Positions 4,482-57,200 of a stretch of 64,000 nucleotides of DNA are shown piece by piece. Under the pieces are notes generated by a model. It did not search any database and was not told where the DNA came from. It worked only from the letters and a program-made list of their open reading frames with translations. The number at the start of each line of letters is the position of its first letter. The stretch's first letter is position 1. The DNA is from a virus (taxonomy: Duplodnaviria > Heunggongvirae > Uroviricota > Caudoviricetes): positions 78,564 to 142,563 of the IMG/VR virus record IMGVR_UViG_2595698353_000001. One strand, given 5' to 3'. Made by a program: the position numbers and the translations under genes.

Positions 4482-5141
4482 ATGACCGTCACGATGGCCC
4501 AGATCAACGCCTTGCCGGACAACCCGACCAAGGACTGGCCGACCCACCTCCAGGACCACGCCGTCATCGCGCAGGCCCTGAAGCAGTATGTCCCCGACAT
4601 CATCTCGCTGAAGTCGCTCGCCCCGTCGTTCGCGACGACGGCCAACCCGACGTTCACCGGCACGGTCTCGTTGCAGACGCTGAAGGTCGGCACCGCGACG
4701 AACGTCGGCCAGGTGCTCACCGCGAGCAACACCACCGGCACCGTGCAGTGGGCGGACCCGGCGGTGAAGTCGGTCGCGAACAAGACCGGCGAGGTCCACC
4801 TGGACGTCGGCGACGTCAACGGCGCTGCCCCGATCGATAGCCCGGTCTTCTCCGGCAGCGTCTCGACGCCGGTCCTCATCATCGGTGGCAGCGAGTTCTC
4901 CGACCCCCCGAGGCCGGGCCAGGTGCTCACGGCGATGAGCGACACCGGTGCCACCGTCTGGACCAACCGCACGCTGGCCTTCGAGGCGCTGCCGCCGGAG
5001 GGCGAGGACTACCGGGGGACCGTCGTTGTCGTCGGAGTGGTCGGGGAGCAGGACGAGCTGTACACCTGCCTGCGGCAGGCGTCGGGCCAGTACCGCTGGC
5101 ATCCGATCACGGTCGGTGCCGCACTCGCGCCCGGCGGGTGA
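4482..5141 (+). CDS. tail fibre protein with phage tail-fibre repeat motifs
   Basis: RBS GGAGAAACC precedes the ATG. Contains NPTFTGTVS and KTGEVHLDVGDVNGA motifs that match the repeats in the 54286 fibre. Followed by a strong terminator. Confidence 0.65.
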   Translation: MTVTMAQINALPDNPTKDWPTHLQDHAVIAQALKQYVPDIISLKSLAPSFATTANPTFTGTVSLQTLKVGTATNVGQVLTASNTTGTVQWADPAVKSVANKTGEVHLDVGDVNGAAPIDSPVFSGSVSTPVLIIGGSEFSDPPRPGQVLTAMSDTGATVWTNRTLAFEALPPEGEDYRGTVVVVGVVGEQDELYTCLRQASGQYRWHPITVGAALAPGG

Positions 5142-5181
5142 TACGCTGACGCCATCCTTTCGTTGGGATGGGATTGCTGGG

Positions 5182-5215
5182 AAATGCCGATCGGTTCGCC
5201 GGTCGGCATTTTTTC
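5182..5215 (+). terminator. rho-independent terminator after the tail fibre gene
   Basis: Stem AATGCCGATCGG, loop ttcg, stem CCGGTCGGCATT (one mismatch), followed by TTTTTT. Confidence 0.65.
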
Positions 5216-5233
5216 ATGTCTTAACCAGGCTGT

Positions 5234-5263
5234 TTGCGTAAACCCATATGTGTCCACTACACT
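5234..5263 (+). promoter_or_regulatory. sigma-A-like promoter P1 (TTGCGT-N18-TACACT)
   Basis: Same -35/18-bp spacer/-10 architecture recurs at 7 or more other loci. Lies about 40 nt upstream of the 5302 ATG and precedes the conserved leader. Confidence 0.45.
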
Positions 5264-5301
5264 GGACAACGTAACGCCGACAGCCCCTCCAGGAGGACCG
5301 C

Positions 5302-5932: not shown

Positions 5933-5954
5933 TCCCCGCACCAAGGAGAGCCCG

Positions 5955-6122: not shown

Positions 6123-6149
6123 CCCACCCCAACACTCAAGGAGGACCCA

Positions 6150-6825: not shown

Positions 6826-6867
6826 AAGCCGGGCTCCCCATCCGCCTTGGGAGCCCGGCTTTTTTTC
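6826..6867 (+). terminator. rho-independent terminator
   Basis: Stem AGCCGGGCTCCC, loop, stem GGGAGCCCGGCT, followed by TTTTTTT. Confidence 0.7.
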
Positions 6868-6885: not shown

Positions 6886-6915
6886 TTGCGCGAACCTATA
6901 GGCGTCAAGTACACT
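6886..6915 (+). promoter_or_regulatory. promoter P2 (TTGCGC-N18-TACACT)
   Basis: Exact repeat of the P1/P5 architecture, followed by leader GCAAGCAACCAACCCCTCCAGGAGGA. Confidence 0.5.
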
Positions 6916-6952
6916 AGACGAAGCAAGCAACCAACCCCTCCAGGAGGATCTC

Positions 6953-8098
6953 ATGGCCACCAAGCGCACCTACCACGTCATCACCCCGACCGGCGAGTTC
7001 GTCGAGTACGAGACCACCGGCAAGGAGTACGCCTTCGCAGCCGTCGTCCTCTTCCCGGCCAACCCGGAGTCGAAGCGCGAGAATGAGCACGTCGCCCACT
7101 GGGGCATCGTGAAGAAGTCGAGCTCCGAGAAGGGCGCGTCGGCCATCGGCCAGACCGCTCGCCACTCCGCGTACCTGAAGTCCTTCCCCCACGCCGTCGT
7201 CCCGATCTTCCACGGACCGGCTCCGGTCGCCGAGCCGACCGCCGCCGAGGAACCGTCTGCCGGTCCGGCCACCGCCAACGGCCTCCGCGTCGGTGACATC
7301 GTGCGCAAGGGATCTGGTGCCAAGACCTACCGCGTGACCGTCGTCCACTCCGCACTCAGCGTCGCCCTCCAGCCCACCGACGCCAAGGGTCGCTACTTCT
7401 ACGACGCCGACCCCACCCTCTACCGTCGCGTCGAGGGAGCTCCGGTCATCAAGGAGCCCGCCGTCGAGAACGAGGCCCCGGCCGAGCCGGTCGCCGAGGA
7501 GGCGCTGATCGCGCACACCAACGTCCACGAGTTCGAGGTGTACATCTACCGGGGCACGGAGCGCGTCGCCGTCGTCACGGCGGAGACCACCTTCACGAAC
7601 GACAAGACCAGCACCCTCCGGCTGTCCGGGTGGGAGGTCGACGGCGAGTGGCAGAAGCTCGACGTGTCGGCTCGGCGCGCCTCGGTCAAGGAGGTCCCGA
7701 TCACCGAGGTCCCGATCGGTGCCGACGTCCACTGGTTCGAGTCCGACGAGGAGGACGCCAGTCGCGGGTACATCGTCAGCGTCAAGCCCGACTCCAAGTA
7801 CGACGCCGACCCGCTGGTGGTCGTCCAGTGGGAGGGCGGCCGCAGCGTCGAATACTTCGAGGATCTGGTCGTCCTGCCGACCTTCTACAGCTACAACCGC
7901 GTGCTCGAGATCGCGGGCGAGAAGGACGCCGACGGCTGGCGGCACGCGACCATCACGCTGCGCGACGGCGACACCGCCGCCGACCCGGGATCGACGAAGA
8001 AGGGCTTCGCGGGGAAGGGCACCATCGAGTACCACATCCACCCGACGAGCTTGGACTACCGCCCGTCCGAGGGCGTCCGCTCGATCTACCTCCGCTGA
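6953..8098 (+). CDS. hypothetical protein (381 aa)
   Basis: Promoter plus conserved leader upstream. The antisense ORF 6914-8458 has GC-artefact composition. Confidence 0.65.
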   Translation: MATKRTYHVITPTGEFVEYETTGKEYAFAAVVLFPANPESKRENEHVAHWGIVKKSSSEKGASAIGQTARHSAYLKSFPHAVVPIFHGPAPVAEPTAAEEPSAGPATANGLRVGDIVRKGSGAKTYRVTVVHSALSVALQPTDAKGRYFYDADPTLYRRVEGAPVIKEPAVENEAPAEPVAEEALIAHTNVHEFEVYIYRGTERVAVVTAETTFTNDKTSTLRLSGWEVDGEWQKLDVSARRASVKEVPITEVPIGADVHWFESDEEDASRGYIVSVKPDSKYDADPLVVVQWEGGRSVEYFEDLVVLPTFYSYNRVLEIAGEKDADGWRHATITLRDGDTAADPGSTKKGFAGKGTIEYHIHPTSLDYRPSEGVRSIYLR

Positions 8099-8110
8099 CC
8101 GACCACCGAC

Positions 8111-8136
8111 GGGGAGGGGCCGCGTGGCCCCTCCCC
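8111..8136 (+). terminator. perfect GC hairpin (possible factor-independent terminator without U tract)
   Basis: GGGGAGGGGCC, loop gcgt, GGCCCCTCCCC immediately after the 6953-8098 stop. Confidence 0.4.
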
Positions 8137-8158
8137 TCCCCCACACGAAGGAGTCACC

Positions 8159-8488
8159 GTGAGCCGCACCGACATCCAGGTCCCCGCCGAGGGCGGCGTC
8201 CGCGTCTACGACGCCGGACACATGACCTTCCTGATCAAGGATCGCGCCGACACCGCGCGCAACTTCCTCCTGGCCGCCAAGGGGCTGCGCGAGACCATCT
8301 ACGCGCCGGACGACTGCCTTGTGCGCGGCCTGAAGTGGGCGCAGAGCGCAGTTCGGTACGCCGAGATCCGCCACTCGGACCCGCGCGTCAACTCGACCGA
8401 GAAGTCGCTCCTGCGGGCCAAGTACGCGGCGCGGATCGAGGCCGAGATCCGCGAGCACGCCGCCGAGCGCGGCCTGGAGTTGCCGTGA
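8159..8488 (+). CDS. hypothetical protein (109 aa)
   Basis: RBS AAGGAG then GTG. Confidence 0.55.
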   Translation: MSRTDIQVPAEGGVRVYDAGHMTFLIKDRADTARNFLLAAKGLRETIYAPDDCLVRGLKWAQSAVRYAEIRHSDPRVNSTEKSLLRAKYAARIEAEIREHAAERGLELP

Positions 8489-9165: not shown

Positions 9166-9195
9166 TTGCATGGAACTATAGCTATGCTGTAGCAT
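9166..9195 (+). promoter_or_regulatory. promoter P3 (TTGCAT-N18-TAGCAT) with dyad CTATAGCTATGCTGTAG in the spacer
   Basis: Family architecture plus conserved leader TCAGCAAGCAACCAGCCCCTCCAGGAGGA downstream. Confidence 0.5.
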
Positions 9196-9233
9196 TCATG
9201 TCAGCAAGCAACCAGCCCCTCCAGGAGGACATC

Positions 9234-10156: not shown

Positions 10157-10354
10157 TCAGGGGCGCTGCGCGCGCCGGAGGACCCGGGACACCTTCGCCT
10201 GCGACCACCCCACGTGCTCGGCGATCTCGCGCTGGTTCATGTGCTCGGTCGCCTTGACCACCGCCTCGAGCGTCCCCCGCTCCGTGCTCTCCGCGACCCG
10301 GCGGTACGCCTGCAGCTCCCTGGCCGCCAGCTCCTTGATCCTCGCGCTGCTCAC
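10157..10354 (-). CDS. small HTH DNA-binding protein (about 65 aa)
   Basis: Motif REIAEHVGWSQAKVSRVLRRA is a helix-turn-helix. Start set at the GTG preceded by GGGAGGAG, overlapping the upstream gene stop (GTGA). The track start at 10408 would add an Ala/Arg-rich extension. Confidence 0.5.
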   Translation of the reverse strand: MSSARIKELAARELQAYRRVAESTERGTLEAVVKATEHMNQREIAEHVGWSQAKVSRVLRRAQRP

Positions 10355-10728
10355 TCTCGCTCCTCCCTCAGGCCGGGGTGCACGTGCTCCAGCATCTCCT
10401 CGAACCACTTCTTGCTGACCTTGCCGGTGCGGCGCAGCTCCTCGATGTCGGACCAGCTACCTCGGCCCCAGTGATCCGCCGCGTTCGTGTTGACGTTCGG
10501 GCAGAACCCGAAGGTCTCCATGTACTCGCGCAGGCTCTCCTCGAGGACGATCGTGCTGACCGTCGACTGGGACACCCCCACCTGTCCGGCGATGTAGCCC
10601 TTCCCGGCGTTCGCCTTGTAGGCCGCGTAGATCGCCGCGCGCATCTGCGTCTCGGCGGCCCTCATCCAGCGGGCCGCCTCCCGGGCGTCTTTCAGCGCGA
10701 TCTCGCGCGGGGTCCATCCAGCGGTCAT
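10351..10728 (-). CDS. HTH DNA-binding protein (125 aa)
   Basis: Motif GYIAGQVGVSQSTVSTIV is an HTH. ATG overlaps the helicase stop (ATGA), so it is co-transcribed. Confidence 0.55.
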   Translation of the reverse strand: MTAGWTPREIALKDAREAARWMRAAETQMRAAIYAAYKANAGKGYIAGQVGVSQSTVSTIVLEESLREYMETFGFCPNVNTNAADHWGRGSWSDIEELRRTGKVSKKWFEEMLEHVHPGLREERE

Positions 10729-14859: not shown

Positions 14860-14889
14860 TTGTGCAGTTTGGTGGGGGTTTGCTATAGT
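14860..14889 (+). promoter_or_regulatory. sigma-A-like promoter (TTGTGC-N18-TATAGT)
   Basis: Canonical hexamers upstream of 14932. Confidence 0.5.
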
Positions 14890-16002: not shown

Positions 16003-16947
16003 GTGGACCGAACCCCGCTGCGCGCGGACGTCGAGCGTGGGGCCGACCACATGGTGATCGTCGACGGCAATAACGTCGTCATGAGGTCCATCTTCGGGAT
16101 GGCCAACGCTCACCTGGTCGGCCCCAACGGTCTGCCCACCGGCGGGATCTTCGGGACGATCGGCGTCTTCCGTTCGCTCGTCGCGCGGCTGCGGCCGACC
16201 CACATGCTCTGGACCTTCGACCAGGGCAAGTCGGCGAAGCGGCTGGCGATGTACCCCGAATACAAGGCGAACCGTGCCCGGGTCTACAACCCGGAGCAGC
16301 CGGGCCGCTTCCACGATGTCAATGCGGTCAAGCTCGGCACCCTCGACGGCGTCAAGTCCTTCTTCGGGTTCTGCGGCGTGCCGTACTTCTCGATGGAGGG
16401 CGTCGAGGCTGATGACCTGATTGCCGAGGCCGCGCTGCGGCTCACCGGCAAGATGCCGGTCACCATCGTCTCCGCCGACCACGATCTGCGTCAGCTGTGT
16501 ACCGAGGACGGCCTCGTCCAGGTGCTCAAGCCGCGCGCCGGTGCCAACGACGAGGACGTGATGTACGACCACGCCCGCGTCGTCGCCGAGTACGGCCTGC
16601 CGCCTCGTGTCATGCCCGAGGTGTGGGCCATCCAGGGCGACACCAGCGACAACATCAAGGGCGTGCAGGGCCTCGGGCCGAAGCGCGCCACCAAGATCAT
16701 CCAGGCGTACGGCAGCCTCGCGGCGGCGATCGAGAAGGATCCCCGGATCCGCGAGAACCGCGAGCTCGTCGAGCGCAACCTCAAGCTGATCTCGCTCCTC
16801 GACGACCCCGAGCAGCGGCTGCCGGAGGGCCTCGAGCTCTGCCTGCTGCCCCGCGACATCCTGGACTACCCCGGCCTGCTCGCGTACTGCGACTACTGGG
16901 GCTTCGATTCACTCACGCACGAGATGATGGGAGGGCGGCTCTGGTGA
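16003..16947 (+). CDS. 5'-3' exonuclease / flap endonuclease (Pol I N-terminal-domain family)
   Basis: VDGNNVVMRS is PIN-like. EADDLIA is the acidic cluster. AIQGDTSDNIKGVQGLGPKRATKII is an H3TH motif. Confidence 0.8.
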   Translation: MDRTPLRADVERGADHMVIVDGNNVVMRSIFGMANAHLVGPNGLPTGGIFGTIGVFRSLVARLRPTHMLWTFDQGKSAKRLAMYPEYKANRARVYNPEQPGRFHDVNAVKLGTLDGVKSFFGFCGVPYFSMEGVEADDLIAEAALRLTGKMPVTIVSADHDLRQLCTEDGLVQVLKPRAGANDEDVMYDHARVVAEYGLPPRVMPEVWAIQGDTSDNIKGVQGLGPKRATKIIQAYGSLAAAIEKDPRIRENRELVERNLKLISLLDDPEQRLPEGLELCLLPRDILDYPGLLAYCDYWGFDSLTHEMMGGRLW

Positions 16948-17279: not shown

Positions 17280-18472
17280 CCGAGCCCCTCGAGTTCGACT
17301 TCGACCAGGTCGTCCGCCGGTTCAAGGATGCGGTCCCCCGCGTCCCGGACAGCGCGCGCTTCCCGATCACCGAGGCCAAGGGCACCGGCCTGATGGACTT
17401 CGCCGACGCCCGCTGGCTGACCGACCTCAACGCCGAGGCCGTCACGCTCGGCCACAACAACGACGGCGTCCGGCACGGCATCAGCCAGCAGATGCTGCAC
17501 CTGTGGTTCTCCGACCCCGACGCGTACCTCCAGCGGATCCAGGTCGAGTACCCGGCCGAGCTGGTCAAGCAGTTCGAGCAGGAGACCGGCCGCCACGGCC
17601 AGCAGCAGGTGCTGCCGCTGTCCTCCCTGGACGAGGCGTACGCGCTCGCGGTGCACCTGACCGAGGGCGACTACATGCAGGGCGACGCGATGATCGGGCT
17701 CGTCAACATGGGGCGGCCGACACCGCTGCTCACCCGCACCGCCCGGCTGGTGCCCGGCGGCGGATCCCCGGCGAAGCAGATCGAGTCCAACAAGATCGGC
17801 GCGATCGTCGTCCGGCTGGTCGCCGACAGCGGCGAGGCCGTCGACCACGACTTCCTCGCCGAGCTGTACCGGGAGGCCCTCGAGCGCAACATCTCGGTGA
17901 TCTTCGACGAGTCGACGACCGCGTTCGGCCGCACCGGCGGCCTGGTCCACCAGTCCCTCGCCGACTTCGCCGGGCTCGAGCCGTTCCTGACCATCCTCGG
18001 GCCGTCTGGCGGCGGCGGGATGCCGTACGCGGCGCTGATCGGCCACCGCGACGCCTTCAACCTGATGCGGCACCGCCGCAACCCGACCGCGCTCAACCCG
18101 ATGTCGATGGCGGCGGCAATGGCCGTCCTCAACCAGATGGGCGATGGGCTGTACGAGAACGTCCGCAGGCGCGGCGAGCAGCTGCGCACCGAGGCGGCCC
18201 AGATCGTCAGCCAGCACCGCTGGATCGAGAGCCTGCGGGGAGAAGGCCTGTTGCTCGGGCTGCGGATCTCGCTCTTCAGCCATGCCCGCCGCCTGGTCGA
18301 GGTCGCCCGCGAGCAGGGCCTGCATCTGGTCATCGCCGAGGACGACATCGGCACCGTCCGGCTCTGGCCGCACCTGACCGTCTCCGAGAAGGAGGTCGGC
18401 GAGATCGTCGACGCTCTCTACGAGGCGTGCCTCGTCGTCGGCACCGAGCTGCATCCGCTCACCGGCACGTAG
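17276..18472 (+). CDS. class-III aminotransferase-like protein (catalytic Lys apparently replaced)
   Basis: IFDESTTAFGRTG matches the AT-III DEVQTGFGRTG signature. The expected TLAKALGGG (PLP-Lys) aligns to TILGPSGGGG, which has no Lys. Confidence 0.65.
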   Translation: MTEPLEFDFDQVVRRFKDAVPRVPDSARFPITEAKGTGLMDFADARWLTDLNAEAVTLGHNNDGVRHGISQQMLHLWFSDPDAYLQRIQVEYPAELVKQFEQETGRHGQQQVLPLSSLDEAYALAVHLTEGDYMQGDAMIGLVNMGRPTPLLTRTARLVPGGGSPAKQIESNKIGAIVVRLVADSGEAVDHDFLAELYREALERNISVIFDESTTAFGRTGGLVHQSLADFAGLEPFLTILGPSGGGGMPYAALIGHRDAFNLMRHRRNPTALNPMSMAAAMAVLNQMGDGLYENVRRRGEQLRTEAAQIVSQHRWIESLRGEGLLLGLRISLFSHARRLVEVAREQGLHLVIAEDDIGTVRLWPHLTVSEKEVGEIVDALYEACLVVGTELHPLTGT

Positions 18473-18546
18473 TGCCTCACCCTCCACGGGCCGCCGGTAA
18501 ATGGTGACCCGTGGAGTGCGGGCCACCCATAGGGCAGTCTCAGGGG

Positions 18547-18555
18547 TGGTATAGT
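18547..18555 (+). promoter_or_regulatory. extended -10 promoter element (TGgTATAGT)
   Basis: Lies 15 nt upstream of the 18571 ATG. Confidence 0.4.
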
Positions 18556-18570
18556 AGTGAGGTAGGAAAA

Positions 18571-18894
18571 ATGCAGGGATTCACCATCGCGCTGGAGGGC
18601 GACGAGGGCTTCCAGAAGTTCCTGGCCCGCAAGATCGAGCTTGGAGCCCAGCTGGAGTTCTCGGTCCCTGGCTGGGACGTGACGGGCTTTGTCACCGGCA
18701 TCGACAGTCAGTGGCTGCAGGTGTCCACAGTCCCCAGCCTCGAGCCGGTCCAGATCCGCATCGGATCGGTCCGCTATGTCCGCGACACCGGACGGCGACT
18801 AGAGGATTTGAAGTCCGAGGACGCCGCCGAGGTTCGGAAGTACGCTCGGGCCATCACCGCGAGGGCGAGGCGTGCAAACCAGACCCTGACGTAG
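18571..18894 (+). CDS. hypothetical protein (107 aa)
   Basis: Internal ATG of track ORF 18511-18894, preceded by GAGGTAGG. Confidence 0.55.
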   Translation: MQGFTIALEGDEGFQKFLARKIELGAQLEFSVPGWDVTGFVTGIDSQWLQVSTVPSLEPVQIRIGSVRYVRDTGRRLEDLKSEDAAEVRKYARAITARARRANQTLT

Positions 18895-36208: not shown

Positions 36209-36969
36209 GCCCGAAGTACATCGCCCTCCGCGTCTCGTCGTTCGAGGACCTCGACGCCCTGCCGGTGACCCGGATGCTGGCGAACGTCACCGCGAAGCTG
36301 GACAGCTCGGTGTTCGACGCGCGCGACTTCGATTCCCGCTTCGACCCGGTCTCTCCGGCCGGGTTCGCCAAGTACCTCGAGCACTTCAGTGTGCCGGTGC
36401 TCCTCCTGGGCCACCTGCAGGGCGCGGCGCTGGTGCGCAACTACATCGGCACCACCGAGGGCTACCAGGCCTTCCGTGACGGCAAGCTGCTCGGTGCCGC
36501 GCTGATCTCGGACCCGTACCGTCCGCAGGGGCACCACCTCGGCAGCGGCGACCTGTCCGGGATGGGGATGTTCGGCGAGGGCCTGCGCTGGCCGCTGGCG
36601 ATGCCGGTGTACCACCTGGCCCACGAGGGTGACATCGTCACCAACGCCGAGCCCGGCTCGCCGCTGTACGACGTCAAGGGCCTCATGGACATGTTCCTGA
36701 CCGAGCCCTCGAGGACGCCCGGCAGCGCGCACACCTACTGCTGGGCCGAGGAGGCCTCGGTCGACCTGACCCGGCGTCGCTGGGCCTCTGAGGGGCTCGG
36801 CACGCCGACCGGCAAGCGTCTCGCGAAGCAGTACGCGAAGACGATCACCGACCTGCAGAACCACCACTACGGCGGCCTGTCGACGACGGCGTACCTCACG
36901 CCGATGCCGGACTCGGGCGAGACGTACATCGGCTACCTGGCCCGAATCATCGAGGAGACCTGGGCATGA
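36205..36969 (+). CDS. hypothetical protein (254 aa)
   Basis: GTG overlaps the upstream stop. In frame with track ORF 36022-36969. Confidence 0.55.
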   Translation: MSPKYIALRVSSFEDLDALPVTRMLANVTAKLDSSVFDARDFDSRFDPVSPAGFAKYLEHFSVPVLLLGHLQGAALVRNYIGTTEGYQAFRDGKLLGAALISDPYRPQGHHLGSGDLSGMGMFGEGLRWPLAMPVYHLAHEGDIVTNAEPGSPLYDVKGLMDMFLTEPSRTPGSAHTYCWAEEASVDLTRRRWASEGLGTPTGKRLAKQYAKTITDLQNHHYGGLSTTAYLTPMPDSGETYIGYLARIIEETWA

Positions 36970-37943: not shown

Positions 37944-37973
37944 TTGCCCCGGCCCATAGGTGTGCTGTAGTCT
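37944..37973 (+). promoter_or_regulatory. promoter P4 (TTGCCC-N18-TAGTCT) with dyad GCTGTAGTCTATCTACAGC overlapping -10
   Basis: Family architecture, followed by leader CAGCAAGCAAGATCAACCCCTCCAGGAGGA. Confidence 0.5.
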
Positions 37974-38012
37974 ATCTACAGCAAGCAAGATCAACCCCTC
38001 CAGGAGGACACC

Positions 38013-40021: not shown

Positions 40022-40051
40022 TTGCGCTACCCTACATGTGTCTAGTACACT
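40022..40051 (+). promoter_or_regulatory. promoter P5 (TTGCGC-N18-TACACT)
   Basis: Identical hexamers to P2. Leader GCAGCCACTCAACCCCTCCAGGAGGA follows. Confidence 0.5.
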
Positions 40052-40088
40052 GGACGTAGCAGCCACTCAACCCCTCCAGGAGGACCCC

Positions 40089-42218: not shown

Positions 42219-42248
42219 TTGCACTAACCTACAGGTGTCCTGTAGGCT
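42219..42248 (+). promoter_or_regulatory. promoter P6 (TTGCAC-N18-TAGGCT) with perfect dyad CCTACAGGTGTCCTGTAGG
   Basis: Family architecture, followed by leader GCAGCAAGAAACCAACACTCCAGGAGG. Confidence 0.5.
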
Positions 42249-42284
42249 AGACGCAGCAAGAAACCAACACTCCAGGAGGCCCCC

Positions 42285-43940: not shown

Positions 43941-44348
43941 GTGCCCACACCACCGCCCCTGATCATCGCTGTCCCCGACGAGTCGGCCATGCCGGTCGTC
44001 CCCGAGGACGAGCGCGACATGCGCTACCAGCGGTACCGGAAGTACGAGACCACCTGGGGCGAGGTCGACATGCTGCACCGGGCGCGCCACCACCTGCACG
44101 AGGCTCGGCGTCGCGTCTCGGGCAGCCACTCCAGAATCGGCGACTTCCTCATGTACGGAGAGATGGTGCCCGACGCCGCACGCCAGACGCTGGCGAGCGA
44201 GGCGCGCAGCCTAGCCGATGCGGCAGCCAGCTACCAGATCGTGTCGATCCTGCGCGCAGTGTTCGCCGAGTCGAACCCGGAGCTCGCTCGCCGCTGGGAT
44301 CAGCTGATGGATCCCGGCGCGTCACTGCCCAAAAAGCCGCAGAGCTGA
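43941..44348 (+). CDS. hypothetical protein (135 aa)
   Basis: RBS GGAGCCCC then GTG. Confidence 0.5.
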   Translation: MPTPPPLIIAVPDESAMPVVPEDERDMRYQRYRKYETTWGEVDMLHRARHHLHEARRRVSGSHSRIGDFLMYGEMVPDAARQTLASEARSLADAAASYQIVSILRAVFAESNPELARRWDQLMDPGASLPKKPQS

Positions 44349-44391
44349 TATAGTACTCATACAGCCCAGCAACAGCCTCAAGGAGGAGCGC

Positions 44392-48905: not shown

Positions 48906-48935
48906 TTGCCAAGAGCTACAGCACTGCTGTAGTCT
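48906..48935 (+). promoter_or_regulatory. promoter P7 (TTGCCA-N18-TAGTCT) with perfect dyad CTACAGCACTGCTGTAG
   Basis: Family architecture. Leader CACCACACCAACACTCAAGGAGG. Confidence 0.5.
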
Positions 48936-48968
48936 AGCTACACCACACCAACACTCAAGGAGGCCATC

Positions 48969-52223: not shown

Positions 52224-52288
52224 CCCGCCTCACAGACTGCGGCCCCCCCCGACTGGGGCGGGCCGCACCCAACCACTCAAGGAGTCCC

Positions 52289-52711: not shown

Positions 52712-52759
52712 CCCGCACGCCCACCCCAAGGAGTCACCTATCGGAAGGACGCCGTCACC

Positions 52760-54285: not shown

Positions 54286-57200
54286 ATGATCTATCGCACC
54301 CTCAAGGTCGACTTCGCCCGCGCCGTGACCCGCACCGGTTCTCACGATCGGGTGGAGGTGGCCATCCGCCCCCTCGACACCACGCACAGCCCGATCGACG
54401 GGGCGACGTACATCGATGGCCCGGCGGCTCAGACCATGGTGCTCTCGGAGGCCAAGAACACCGTCGAGTTCCGGCTGGTGCCGTCGTACGCGGAGGGCCT
54501 GACCGAGCCGGTGCTCTACCGAGCCTCGTGGCGTGTCGGTCTGACCGGTCGACTCGAGACCGTCGAGTTCTCCATGCCGAACATGGACGTCACGCTGGCG
54601 CAGCTGCAGGACATGGGCGAGATCATCGGCGAGCTGCCCTACCTGAAGGAGGGCGACCTCGGCGTCCCGGGTCGCGTCGCCCGACTCAACGACCAGGGCA
54701 AGGTCATCGACGCGTTCGGCAACATCGTCGACGGCTCCGGCAGCGCGGTCGAGCTCGGCCAGCGCCTCGACCTCGAGATCGCGAACCGGCAGAGTGCCGA
54801 CGCCGCCCTGAACACGTCGCTGTCGAACGAGATCTCCAACCGGGTCACCTCGGTCACCACCGCATTCCAGAACCTGCTCAGCGCGCAGATCGGCTCGGTC
54901 GTCTCGACCGCCAACGCCGACCGCGCGAGCATGGGCTCCGGCCTGGCCATCGCCAACGGCAGGATCATCTCCATCGAGGCGACGCTGCCGAAGAAGGCCG
55001 ACCTCGTCGACGGCCGCCTGCCGCTGTCGCAGGCCCCGCTCGTCCAGCTCGGCCAGGTGCATGCGGCCACGAACCAGGCAGCCATGCTCGGCCTGACCGG
55101 CGTCGCGGTCGGCGACGTCTGCCTGCGGCCGGACGGCTCGTGGATGCTCACCGCGCAGCCGCCGTCGTTGCTGAAGAACTGGACCCAGATCACCTCGCCA
55201 TCCGACACCGTGATGTCGGTCAACGGCAAGATCGGCGTGGTCACCCTGACGGCCGCCGACGTCGGCGCGTGGTCGAACGCGACCCTGCTGCCGCAGAACG
55301 CCATTCAGTCGCTGCCGACGGACCTCGCGACGATCCGACAGAACGTCGCTGCGCACACGGTCACCCTCTCGAGCGCGGTGCTCGTCAATGAGACCGGCAT
55401 GATCGACGACGCCAAGCTGTCGGGCTCGGTCGCCTTCCTCAACAGCCAGAACCAGGTCGTGAACAAGGCCGGGCAGGTCGTCATCGTCTCCGGCAACGTC
55501 TCGTCGGTGAACGGCAAGTCCGGCGCGGTGGTGCTCAAGGCCTCCGACGTCGGCGCGGTGGGCGTCGGCTCGCAGATCTCGATGTCGTACGTCACCGGCC
55601 TGGTGCTCGCGCTGCAGGAGAAGGTCGGAATCAACGACGCGTCGGTCACCAACGCGCGCACGCCGCTGTCGCACGCCGCGAGCCACAGCTTCGGCGGCCA
55701 GGATCCGCTCACCCCGGCCGCCATCGGCGCGCTCGCGGCCAACGCGCAGATCCCGCAGAGCCAGATCACCGGCCTGCTCACGGACATGGCGCTGAAGGCG
55801 AGCCAGTCCGACCTGCAGATCACCAACAACCAGGTCCAGAAGAACACGATCGACATCGCCAGCCTCATCGCGGGCGGCGGCGGCAGTGGCGGCGGCGGGA
55901 TCGCAGGCAACGTCGTCTCGTGGGCCAACGGCTCGTCGACGAACCCGTACACCGCGAGCATCATGTCTCCGTTCGGCTGGAGCTCGGCGAACGGCTACTA
56001 CTACAACGCCGAGGGCGCGGCGGCGGGCGAGGCTGTCTGGCCGTACATCACCCCGAACGGTCGGCTCGAGCTGCGCAGGGTCAACCACAGCGCGCCGGTG
56101 GATCCGGCCCCGGCGACGGCCACCGACATCGCGGCCGTCCAGGGGCAGATCGACACCGTCAACGGCAAGATCCCGGGCCTGGCGACCAAGACGGCGCTGG
56201 ACAGCACCAACTCGAACGTCGCGGGGATCTCGACGGCCATCACCCTGCTGGCACCGCTGGCCAGCCCGACGTTCACCGGCACCGCCTCGACGCCCGCCCT
56301 GCGTGTCACCGGCGGCACGCTGGCGGCTGGCCGGGTGCTCACCTCGGACGCGTCCGGCAACGCGACGTGGCAGGCCGTCCCGGTCGTCTCGGTGGCGGGC
56401 AAGACCGGCGCGGTGGTGCTGGCTCAGTCCGACATCACCGGGCTCGTCTCGGACCTCGGCGCGAAGGCCGACAGGGCCAACCCGACGTTCACTGGCACCA
56501 CGACGATCTCGGCCCTGCGCGTCACTGGCGGCTCGCTGGGCGCGGGCAAGACCCTGATCTCCGACGCCTCGGGCAACGCGACGTGGCAGGTGCCGCCGAG
56601 CGCCCCCGTGTCCTCGGTGTCCGGGCACACCGGAGACGTCACCCTGGTGCCGTCGGACGTCGTCGGCCTGTCGACGCTGATGAACGCGAAGGCCGATCTC
56701 GTCGGCGGCGTGATCCGCTCCGACCAGATCCCGGCCCTGGCTATGCACACCGTTGTCACGGCCGCCTCTCAGGCTGACATGCTCGCGCTGACCACCTCCC
56801 AGGTGCAGCGCGGCGATATGTGCATCATCACCGGCGGCGCTGAGCGCGGCAACTACATCCTCACGGCGGACAGCCCGGCGATCCTGTCGAACTGGGTGCC
56901 GCTGGTGCTGCCCGCGCAGGCCGTCTCCTCGGTCAACGGCAAGACCGGCGTCGCGGTCCTGTCGGCCGCCGACGTCGGAGCCATCGCCACCGGCGCGATG
57001 ATCCCGCAGTCCCAGATCACCGGCCTGCTCACGGATCTCGGCGGGAAGGCTGACAGCTCGGCGCTGGCCAACTACCTGTCCAAGACCGAGGCGCAGGCGC
57101 AGTCGACGACGAAGAACACCGTGAAGTACGCGGCCACCAGCAGCGTGACGAGCCTGTCGGGCACCTCGACGCTGATCGACAGCCGGACCCTGGTCGCCGG

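Follow-up and report, generated by a model that had tools for sequence, protein, structure and literature searches.

Why does one short, C- and A-rich sequence stand directly before one start codon after another in a phage genome? The question arises at positions 6921-6955 of a 64-kb stretch of viral DNA (the window), which read aAGCAAGCAACCAACCCCTCCAGGAGGATCTC-ATG and which an initial annotation described as one copy of a leader preceding at least 14 start codons. Megablast identifies the window, at 100% identity, as positions 78,564-142,563 of Rhodococcus phage E3 (HM114277.1), the final 64 kb of the 142,563-bp genome of this R. equi phage, whose GenBank record has no regulatory feature annotated. 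We took in the whole annotated E3 genome and analysed all 221 annotated starts. The leader is a discrete, strand-specific and position-fixed element in front of unrelated non-structural genes, and on balance we think it probable that it constitutes the shared 5' untranslated region (UTR) and translation-initiation region of one promoter-defined E3 regulon.

The leader is real and recurs upstream of starts, as had been claimed for it. A weight matrix of 22 nt (18 nt plus GGAG), run over both strands of the whole genome at a threshold of 12 bits, finds 23 sites on the + strand and none on the - strand, where dinucleotide shuffles give about 0.25 by chance, and each of the 23 is followed by an annotated start at a distance of 4-7 nt. 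Similarly, the core CCAACNCTCMAGGAG and the word CCCCTCCAGGAGGA, each allowing at most one mismatch, both match five times in the window versus 0.06 expected from shuffles, always on the + strand. Allowing up to three mismatches, the 15-mer CCAACACTCAAGGAG has 15 matches on the + strand of the whole genome and none on the - strand, and 14 of the 15 precede an annotated start by 4-7 nt. No other 14-mers in E3 are repeated as often as the leader words, and the E3 consensus is CCACCCCAAC(A/C)CTC(A/C)AGGAG. A leave-one-out score uses the 14 columns 5' of MAGGAG, that is (A/C)AGGAG, with the Shine-Dalgarno (SD) block excluded; it places 22 genes at 7 bits or more and the others below 6 bits, mostly at strongly negative values. 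Such a bimodal distribution indicates a discrete gene class and no gradient of SD quality.

Conservation also extends past the SD core, as the initial annotation had proposed, and is not confined to GGAGG. The 16 columns 5' of (A/C)AGGAG hold 16.6 bits versus 10.8 bits in the SD block. Their composition is 55% C, 32% A and 6% G; when this A/C-rich background is taken as the reference, 10.3 bits are left, compared with 1.7 +/- 0.3 in within-leader shuffles (z = 26), which indicates that register matters beyond composition alone. Selecting the members with the matrix inflates these figures; the bimodality of the leave-one-out score is independent of that selection. Extra pairing with 16S rRNA was rejected as the reason for the extension, since leader genes and other genes do not differ in the energy of the SD:anti-SD duplex: the medians are -10.3 and -9.1 kcal/mol, respectively (p = 0.74), calculated with the textbook actinobacterial 16S 3' tail, which may not be the host's own. 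Only 6-7 nt pair with this tail, and the conserved extension adds no pairing. An SD as strong or stronger is found in 65 of the 194 other genes, which have no extension.

The context of initiation is distinctive as well. The start codon is ATG in 22 of the 23 leader genes versus 125 of the 194 others (Fisher p = 0.0016), and the SD-to-start spacing of 4-7 nt, mostly 5-6, is filled by a C-rich spacer with C at -4, -2 and -1 in 16-19 of 23 genes. The G content is 20% in leaders versus 32% in other upstream regions, and the depletion continues into the coding sequence, where codons 2-11 of leader genes have a G fraction of 0.20 versus 0.27 (p = 3e-5) with C enriched; codons 22-51 have no such depletion. 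The region from -40 to +40 folds with a median of -10.6 kcal/mol in leader genes and -22.6 kcal/mol in others (p = 1e-9). RNA folding of the leaders, a check named in the initial annotation, shows eight window leaders folding at -4.8 to -8.4 kcal/mol, with z of +0.16 to +1.41 against their own shuffles. A conserved RNA structure was thus rejected, all eight tested leaders folding no better than their shuffles, and Rfam 15 gave no family match at gathering score in the whole window.

Eleven above-threshold leaders and two degenerate members, 13 in all, lie in the window, and 12 further copies lie outside it. Ten starts among the 14 originally listed carry strong leaders (5729, 6150, 6953, 9234, 38013, 40089, 42285, 48969, 51999 and 52289), and an eleventh, 5302, has a weaker one that is above threshold (13.5 bits) with its distal half diverged. 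Two more keep their place as degenerate members: start 9485 falls below threshold in E3 and is canonical, at 26.8 bits, in a relative described below (relative A), and start 44392 is a one-indel variant of the copy at record position 5068, with a score of -6.0. Start 52760 was rejected, its SD-like word lying too far upstream (22 nt) with no start codon after it. Of the five starts that had been called internal and devoid of a promoter, 5729, 6150 and 52289 stand, whereas 44392 lies behind an extended -10 element (TGATATAGT) and 52760 has no leader. The window also holds five shorter look-alikes of the form CCCAAC-N2-3-AAGGAG.

About half of the leaders belong to a larger unit. Twelve of the 23 follow a promoter of one family, composed of TTGCGC, an 18-nt spacer with a palindrome of the CCTATAGG or CACCTATAGGTG type, TA(c/a)(a/g)CT (TAnnCT) and aGACGa. 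The genome holds 15 copies of this promoter, all on the + strand, 12 with a leader, one with a diverged leader and two probably leaderless. Promoters and terminators were scored by a purpose-made weight matrix and by folds; a generic promoter/terminator scanner called neither the E3 family promoters nor the large-loop terminators. The resulting cassette of about 75 bp stands in front of about 13 transcription units in the order TTGCGC, palindromic spacer, TAnnCT, aGACGa-AGCAAGC, CCAAC(A/CC)CTC(A/C), AGGAG(G), a 4-7-nt spacer and ATG. In an alignment of 13 promoter-linked copies, similarity starts abruptly at the -35 hexamer and ends at the ATG, and the 60 nt before the starts of gp200 and gp96 (record 54822) differ at six positions, the final 47 nt being identical. 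If transcription starts 6-8 nt past the -10 hexamer, the transcript would have a 5' UTR of about 27-33 nt beginning at AGCAAGC.

The SD-proximal half, (C)CACCCCAAC(A/C)CTC(A/C)AGGAG, also occurs alone between nearby cistrons, mostly within cassette units, and most promoter-less leaders lie just downstream of family or variant promoters. Among the leaders without a family promoter, seven fill a 26-44-nt gap after the preceding stop and four follow a hairpin; a variant promoter precedes two of these four as well, those at record 5068 and 53631. The leader at record 20730 is located within the preceding coding sequence. Strong hairpins with a U-tract stand directly upstream of two of the eight window cassettes, those of gp126 and gp129. 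The features of the window are as follows.

5179-5215, + strand: terminator-like hairpin and U-tract directly upstream of the gp126 cassette; stem GCCGAUCGG..CCGGUCGGC, then U6; fold of 5142-5233, -37.9 kcal/mol
5234-5269, + strand: gp126 promoter TTGCGT-N18-TACACT-ggacaa; promoter matrix 50.3 bits
5270-5301, + strand: gp126 leader, start 5302; proximal CCCCTCCAGGAGGA exact, distal half diverged; 13.5 bits
5701-5728, + strand: leader of the internal gene gp127, start 5729, occupying the full 28-nt gap after the gp126 stop; 31.1 bits, exact core
5933-5954, + strand: short-form relative CCCCGCACCAAGGAG before gp127.5, found by eye and below the matrix threshold
6123-6149, + strand: leader of the internal gene gp128, start 6150, upstream gap 27 nt; 30.8 bits, exact core
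6826-6866, + strand: intrinsic-terminator-like hairpin and U7 closing the gp126-gp128 unit; fold -32.1 kcal/mol
6886-6921, + strand: gp129 promoter TTGCGC-N18-TACACT-agacga, palindrome CCTATAGG at 6895-6902; 50.4 bits
6922-6952, + strand: gp129 leader, start 6953, the site of the initial annotation; 27.2 bits; fold -6.3 kcal/mol, z +1.21
8130-8158, + strand: short-form relative CCCCCACACGAAGGAG before gp130 (GTG start), below threshold
9166-9201, + strand: gp132 promoter variant TTGCAT-N18-TAGCAT; 31.1 bits
9202-9233, + strand: gp132 leader, start 9234; exact CCCCTCCAGGAGGA, 22.4 bits
9453-9484, + strand: degenerate leader of the internal gene gp133, start 9485, below threshold; orthologous site in relative A, 26.8 bits
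14906-14931, + strand: short-form relative CACCCCCAACGAAGGAG before gp141, downstream of the extended -10 TGCTATAGT at 14881-14889
37944-37979, + strand: gp170 promoter; 34.8 bits
37980-38012, + strand: gp170 leader, start 38013; 20.9 bits; fold z +1.04
40022-40057, + strand: gp174 promoter; 48.2 bits
40058-40088, + strand: gp174 leader, start 40089; 24.7 bits
40362-40393, + strand: short-form relative CCCCAACCGAAGGAG before gp175
42219-42254, + strand: gp180 promoter; 51.6 bits
42255-42284, + strand: gp180 leader, start 42285; 29.5 bits
44346-44391, + strand: gp185 extended -10 promoter TGATATAGT, then the diverged leader GCAACAGCCTCAAGGAGG, start 44392; leader score -6.0
48906-48941, + strand: gp192 promoter variant; 30.3 bits
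48942-48968, + strand: gp192 leader, start 48969; 31.7 bits
51934-51969, + strand: gp200 promoter; 53.0 bits
51970-51998, + strand: gp200 leader, start 51999; 28.5 bits
52224-52288, + strand: gp201 unit, with a G+C-rich hairpin without U-tract (52224-52262; -17.1 kcal/mol) and the leader core (52263-52288; 29.7 bits), start 52289
52720-52738, + strand: rejected site, SD-like word CCCACCCCAAGGAGTCACC, 22 nt upstream of the gp202 start 52760

The spacer palindrome is also present at window positions 5243, 37953, 40031, 42228 and 51943, and it resembles an operator to which a dimeric regulator would bind. Microbacterium cluster EC phages have an 18-bp repeat, TAGaCTATaGGTgTaAgC (PMC7302621), that has CTATAGGTGT in common with this palindrome. 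In two family promoters elsewhere in the genome (L003:14062-14100 and L003:20059-20098, L003 and L004 being pieces of the E3 record; record 14098 and 20096) the -10 hexamer lies 6-7 nt from the ATG, and the gp29 and gp46 mRNAs are probably leaderless. A third promoter type with an extended -10, TG(C/A)TATAGT, is found 29-42 nt before gp141, gp185, gp37 and gp83 (window 14881-14889 and 44346-44354; L003:16782-16790; L004:3827-3835). A separate motif, GCATCAAT(A/T)GG, stands 22-34 nt before structural or lysis-type starts (SGNH hydrolase, tail fibre, amidase, Hep_Hag and LysM) at L004:4537-4547, 7396-7406, 8456-8466, 16031-16041 and 17693-17703 and at L003:26422-26432 and 36556-36566, with no copy in the window; it is a candidate late promoter, perhaps for phage sigma-like proteins. 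The G+C-rich hairpins without U-tract that lie between the stop and the leader core at gp201 (52224-52262) and gp103 (L004:20200-20250) may be stabilising or processing elements.

The genes behind the leader have little in common apart from it. The 25 proteins showed no mutual similarity by blastp, and paralogy of the downstream genes was rejected as the source of the shared leader, the proteins being unrelated. The leader genes include no annotated structural gene, a scan of ten of them gave no Pfam or PHROG function, and the major late genes (capsid, sheath and tube) are without the leader. The gap upstream of the gene has a median of 75 nt for leader genes versus 2 nt for others. Two other loci were also noted. 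Right after gp95, at record 54624-54698 (L004:14624-14698), an unannotated 24-codon open reading frame, MTWIFRFTPNWFSSIGWLELFGSA, has a short-form leader, CCAACCACCACCGAAAGGAG-N6-ATG, on its 5' side and a terminator-like hairpin on its 3' side; it probably encodes a small hydrophobic peptide. The product of gp134 (window 10157-10408, - strand) is annotated as an RNA polymerase sigma-70 factor, has only 83 aa, overlaps gp135 and matches a single winged helix-turn-helix domain (DUF7343); relative A has a 66-aa DUF7343 protein directly after its helicase. The sigma-factor annotation appears doubtful.

Outside E3, the leader was found in related phages. Blastn of the leader region against GenBank phages matched E3 alone, at 10 places. 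An exact-word scan of IMG/VR with both leader forms gave single chance matches on both strands in unrelated taxa, as did scans of metagenome and genome contigs among the matches listed, and no multi-copy contig appeared among any of these. Finch, the closest sequenced relative with 20.7% shared gene content (PMC13313380), has no repeated leader, CCCGAC and CCACCC being weakly enriched before its SDs, and the gp102 orthologues of Finch and of the Gordonia phage RedWattleHog are without the E3 leader sequence. RedWattleHog has its own over-conserved ribosome-binding-site leader, (c)caCCCCGACCAAGGAG-N5-7-ATG or CCCCGACCAAGGAG-N5-7-ATG, at no fewer than seven starts. Examples of its leader and promoter are at record 58279, 103044, 108295, 113702 and 122076, and its repeated promoter-like element CTACACGTGTGTATATTTAGTGGTGTCAGG occurs in 4-7 copies, with an equal number of matches in Stormageddon.

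Protein searches of Sequence Read Archive assemblies revealed that E3, a 'singleton' phage, has three uncultured relatives. Relative A is a 141,916-bp contig from SRR26188684 (gp102 94% and helicase 92% identical), relative B a 133,776-bp contig from SRR25503389 (gp102 54% identical), and relative C a set of contigs of up to 42 kb with 62% G+C (helicase 52% identical). The cassette recurs in all three: each 16-22-kb locus of the relatives holds 2-8 matrix matches of at least 12 bits where 0.1 or fewer are expected, and the - strand has none. Aligned across the four phages, 31 cassettes keep TTGC/TTGAC at -35, TAnnnT at -10, (A)CAAGCA at the predicted transcript start, CAAC, CTC(A/C)AGGAG and ATG. 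The promoters of relative C are near-consensus, TTGACA-N17/18-TACAAT or TACAGT. The leader itself takes lineage-specific forms, with ACACTC or CCCCTCC in E3 and A, ACAGCTC in B and C, and CCCCGACC in RedWattleHog. At four-fold synonymous sites E3 has an identity of 0.83 with A and of 0.57 with B, the latter indicating that the leader family persists where neutral sites are near saturation; G+C is 62-65% in B and C and 67% in the E3 transcriptome.

Furthermore, the cassette behaves as a portable unit, since the genes behind it have been exchanged between close relatives. Between E3 and A the cassette is kept and the gene behind it replaced at gp132 (25% amino acid identity), gp192 (14%) and gp180 (51%, different length), and A has one extra cassette-plus-gene. 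Conversely, the upstream context is exchanged at gp93, gp133 and gp201 and the leader core stays; at gp201 of relative A the leader is present and the hairpin absent.

If the leader is the shared 5' UTR and initiation region of a regulon, host SigA RNA polymerase would read the family promoters and the genes would be early, for which the near-consensus promoters of relative C are the best indication, and a dimeric regulator may act at the spacer palindrome. The G-poor, unstructured, CA-rich mRNA flanking an SD of normal strength would then act in cis, by holding the ribosome-binding site open and/or by offering the ribosome a standby or enhancer contact, and the outcome would be uniformly efficient initiation within a 67% G+C transcriptome. 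The fixed distance to the ATG, the ATG bias, the use without a promoter, the lack of structure and the G depletion into the coding sequence all argue for action at the mRNA level. Four observations weigh against this account. The SD of leader genes is predicted to be no more exposed than that of other genes (unpaired probability 0.45 in both), and the leader is not needed for high expression as such, the late and presumably abundant capsid, sheath and tube genes being without it. The last 25 nt at orthologous starts did not set leader genes apart from others either in A (p = 0.76) or in B (0.70 versus 0.61, p = 0.16, n = 4). Finally, position-specific conservation, as of the T of CTC and of AAC, and the lineage-specific versions exceed what an unstructured, G-poor stretch would need; they fit a trans-acting factor or the homogenisation of a mobile cassette. 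These two readings and that of a regulon leader are not mutually exclusive.

As a specific mRNA site for a trans-acting factor, the leader would serve to switch the whole regulon post-transcriptionally. Candidate factors are an RNA-binding protein of phage or host, a chaperone of RNA such as the phage's Hfq-like gp146, and an endoribonuclease acting like T4 RegB or RegA. We regard this reading as possible but unlikely. It would explain the position-specific conservation past composition (10.3 bits, z = 26), the coordinate shift of the consensus between lineages and the fact that the element marks one gene class and not the highly expressed genes, and a candidate is at hand, in that E3 gp146 (window 18511-18894, + strand) matches Pfam PF23874, Phage_Hfq, with E = 2e-40. 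The authors who described the start-associated sequences (SAS) of cluster K mycobacteriophages likewise allowed for a factor of host or phage origin (Pope et al. 2011, PMC3203893), and gp39 of the SAS-bearing cluster K phage Adephagia has an Hfq-like structure. On the other hand, Phage_Hfq belongs to the core genes that the whole group shares, and Finch, which has no strong repeated leader, and about 200 cluster C mycobacteriophages have it too, so that its co-occurrence with the leader is not specific; E3 + strand transcripts have no antisense partner sequence, reverse-complement leader 9-mers occurring 0-1 times on that strand; and no clear (ARN)n triplet run is visible by eye in the leader. 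The narrower idea that the leader, and other actinobacteriophage SAS, are an address label for a phage Hfq-like chaperone (E3 gp146, Adephagia gp39) is a long shot, and as Finch and cluster C have Phage_Hfq without a known strong leader, the gp146 link is only a lead. Were it true, the phage would import its own Hfq-type post-transcriptional switch, toggling an accessory gene class at the ribosome-binding site. An Hfq equivalent is still sought in the host group of E3 (PMC8628891). In the E3 record gp146 is annotated as 'conserved hypothetical'; it follows an aminotransferase gene and is syntenic with RedWattleHog gp71 and Finch gp68.

Descent could account for much of the same pattern if a promoter and ribosome-binding-site cassette had spread and been homogenised by recombination as a joint for accessory-gene swaps, its extra bases being functionless. 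The sharp limits of similarity from the -35 element to the ATG, near-identical copies such as gp96 and gp200 with their common last 47 nt, the replaced genes (gp132, gp192 and gp180) and the extra cassette-plus-gene of A, the swapped contexts around a constant core at gp93, gp133 and gp201, terminator hairpins directly upstream of two cassettes and cargo genes nearly all without known function are in line with such a history. We consider it somewhat less likely than a trans-acting factor. Against it, the SD-proximal half is retained in promoter-less copies, the copy at record 20730 sits within the coding sequence of the gene before it, B and C still have the element (synonymous identity 0.57, G+C 62-65%), RedWattleHog has a related C-rich element of different sequence, and the G depletion runs into non-homologous coding sequence, which descent cannot explain. 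It is quite improbable that the motif is an asymmetric protein site on the DNA, stoperator-like, that modulates transcription within the units and overlaps the ribosome-binding site by accident: its asymmetry, single orientation, many copies in short intergenic gaps and link to palindrome-bearing promoters would suit such a site, but the fixed 4-7 nt to the start, the SD within the motif, the ATG bias and the G depletion in the coding sequence are features of RNA and translation, no repressor or integrase is annotated in E3, and Finch, its closest relative, has been described as a lytic phage. A strong SD plus chance, with nothing further, is scarcely credible; AAGGAG/AGGAGG is indeed the most conserved block of the leader (10.8 bits), yet 16.6 bits lie outside it, the matches are far above shuffle expectation and other genes with an equally strong SD have no extension.

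In T4, RegB and RegA exert class-wide post-transcriptional control of early mRNAs through ribosome-binding-site sequences, and the RegB target is only GGAG. The likeness of the E3 leader to this system is an analogy only; no homologue of RegB or RegA turned up in E3, where no search was aimed at one. The stoperators of cluster A phages, which act on DNA via the immunity repressor as summarised in Pope et al. 2011 (PMC3203893), are likewise short asymmetric repeats in one orientation in intergenic gaps genome-wide; unlike the E3 motif, which contains the SD in a genome without an annotated repressor, they have no fixed distance to a start. Closer in composition are proven translation enhancers of enterobacterial GcvB targets, namely C/A-rich or ACA elements that adjoin the SD on its 5' side (Yang et al. 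2014, PMC3879156). The E3 leader is also G-poor and C/A-rich directly 5' of the SD, with ACA in its CAACACTC form, and the enterobacterial elements act on initiation independently of SD strength, to which E3 offers a counterpart by sequence only. They belong to another phylum, however, and the E3 element has a fixed register and sequence, a CCCCTCC form without ACA and no small-RNA partner found in E3.

The cassette as a whole resembles the promoter-early stem-loop (PeSL) cassettes of T4-type phages (Arbiol et al. 2010, PMC2839356). Both repeat a promoter, an SD and a start before ORFan genes scattered among core modules, and the E3 promoter is sigma-70-like by sequence (TTGCGC-N18-TAnnCT; TTGACA-N17/18-TACAAT in C). 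In both, gene insertion or replacement between close relatives is bounded by cassettes (in E3 gp132, gp180, gp192 and the extra gene of A), and some copies are adjoined by terminator hairpins. The E3 unit differs in having no conserved stem-loop, its spacer palindrome being too short to terminate, and in that the transcribed leader itself is conserved and also present without a promoter. Such a cassette would be a compact, ready-made expression signal for Rhodococcus and related hosts, and the leader can aid annotation by marking true start codons and small unannotated genes.

The parallel with SAS that the initial annotation drew holds for architecture, feature by feature, and fails for sequence. 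SAS and extended SAS (ESAS) have been described in cluster K (Pope et al. 2011, PMC3203893; Adephagia 2024, PMC11373665), and SAS also in Microbacterium cluster EF (PMC7302621); SAS have been known since 2011, with a role still described as unknown in 2024-2025 (PMC11373665). In both systems a repeat in one orientation overlaps the ribosome-binding site (SAS 3-9 nt from the start; E3 4-7 nt in 23 of 23), with 10-20 or more copies per genome, an ATG bias, unrelated non-structural genes after long gaps, conserved positions unable to pair with 16S rRNA and a C-rich flank between SD and start. About half of the copies lie behind a SigA-like promoter of about 46-50 bp with an inverted repeat, and the repeat is kept across related phages, the E3 version in A, B and C and not in Finch. 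The 13-bp consensus is GGGATAGGAGCCC in cluster K and GGGAAAGGACCCC in cluster EF, and the former, at up to two mismatches, matched the window twice versus 2.35 expected, neither time at a start. The E3 extension is 15-20 nt, mainly 5' of the SD, C/A-rich and G-poor, whereas SAS have their G-rich part 5' and their C-rich part 3'; conservation in E3 also takes in AGCAAGC at the predicted transcript start, and E3 is a lytic 142-kb Rhodococcus myovirus, whereas the cluster K hosts of the motif are temperate siphoviruses. Judged by these features, the E3 leader appears to work like SAS/ESAS without being a sequence member, and an earlier mention in the E3 paper of Salifu et al. 2013 is possible.

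E3 and its relatives are thus an independent case of a two-part design, an inverted-repeat promoter plus an over-conserved ribosome-binding-site leader, in unrelated sequence. The system is a favourable one, as its conserved part lies 5' of an ordinary SD and is separable from it, occurs with and without the promoter, exists as natural variants in four related genomes and shares a genome with a candidate RNA-binding protein. That the same architecture recurs with unrelated sequence points to a general principle of actinobacteriophage gene control that reaches beyond cluster K.

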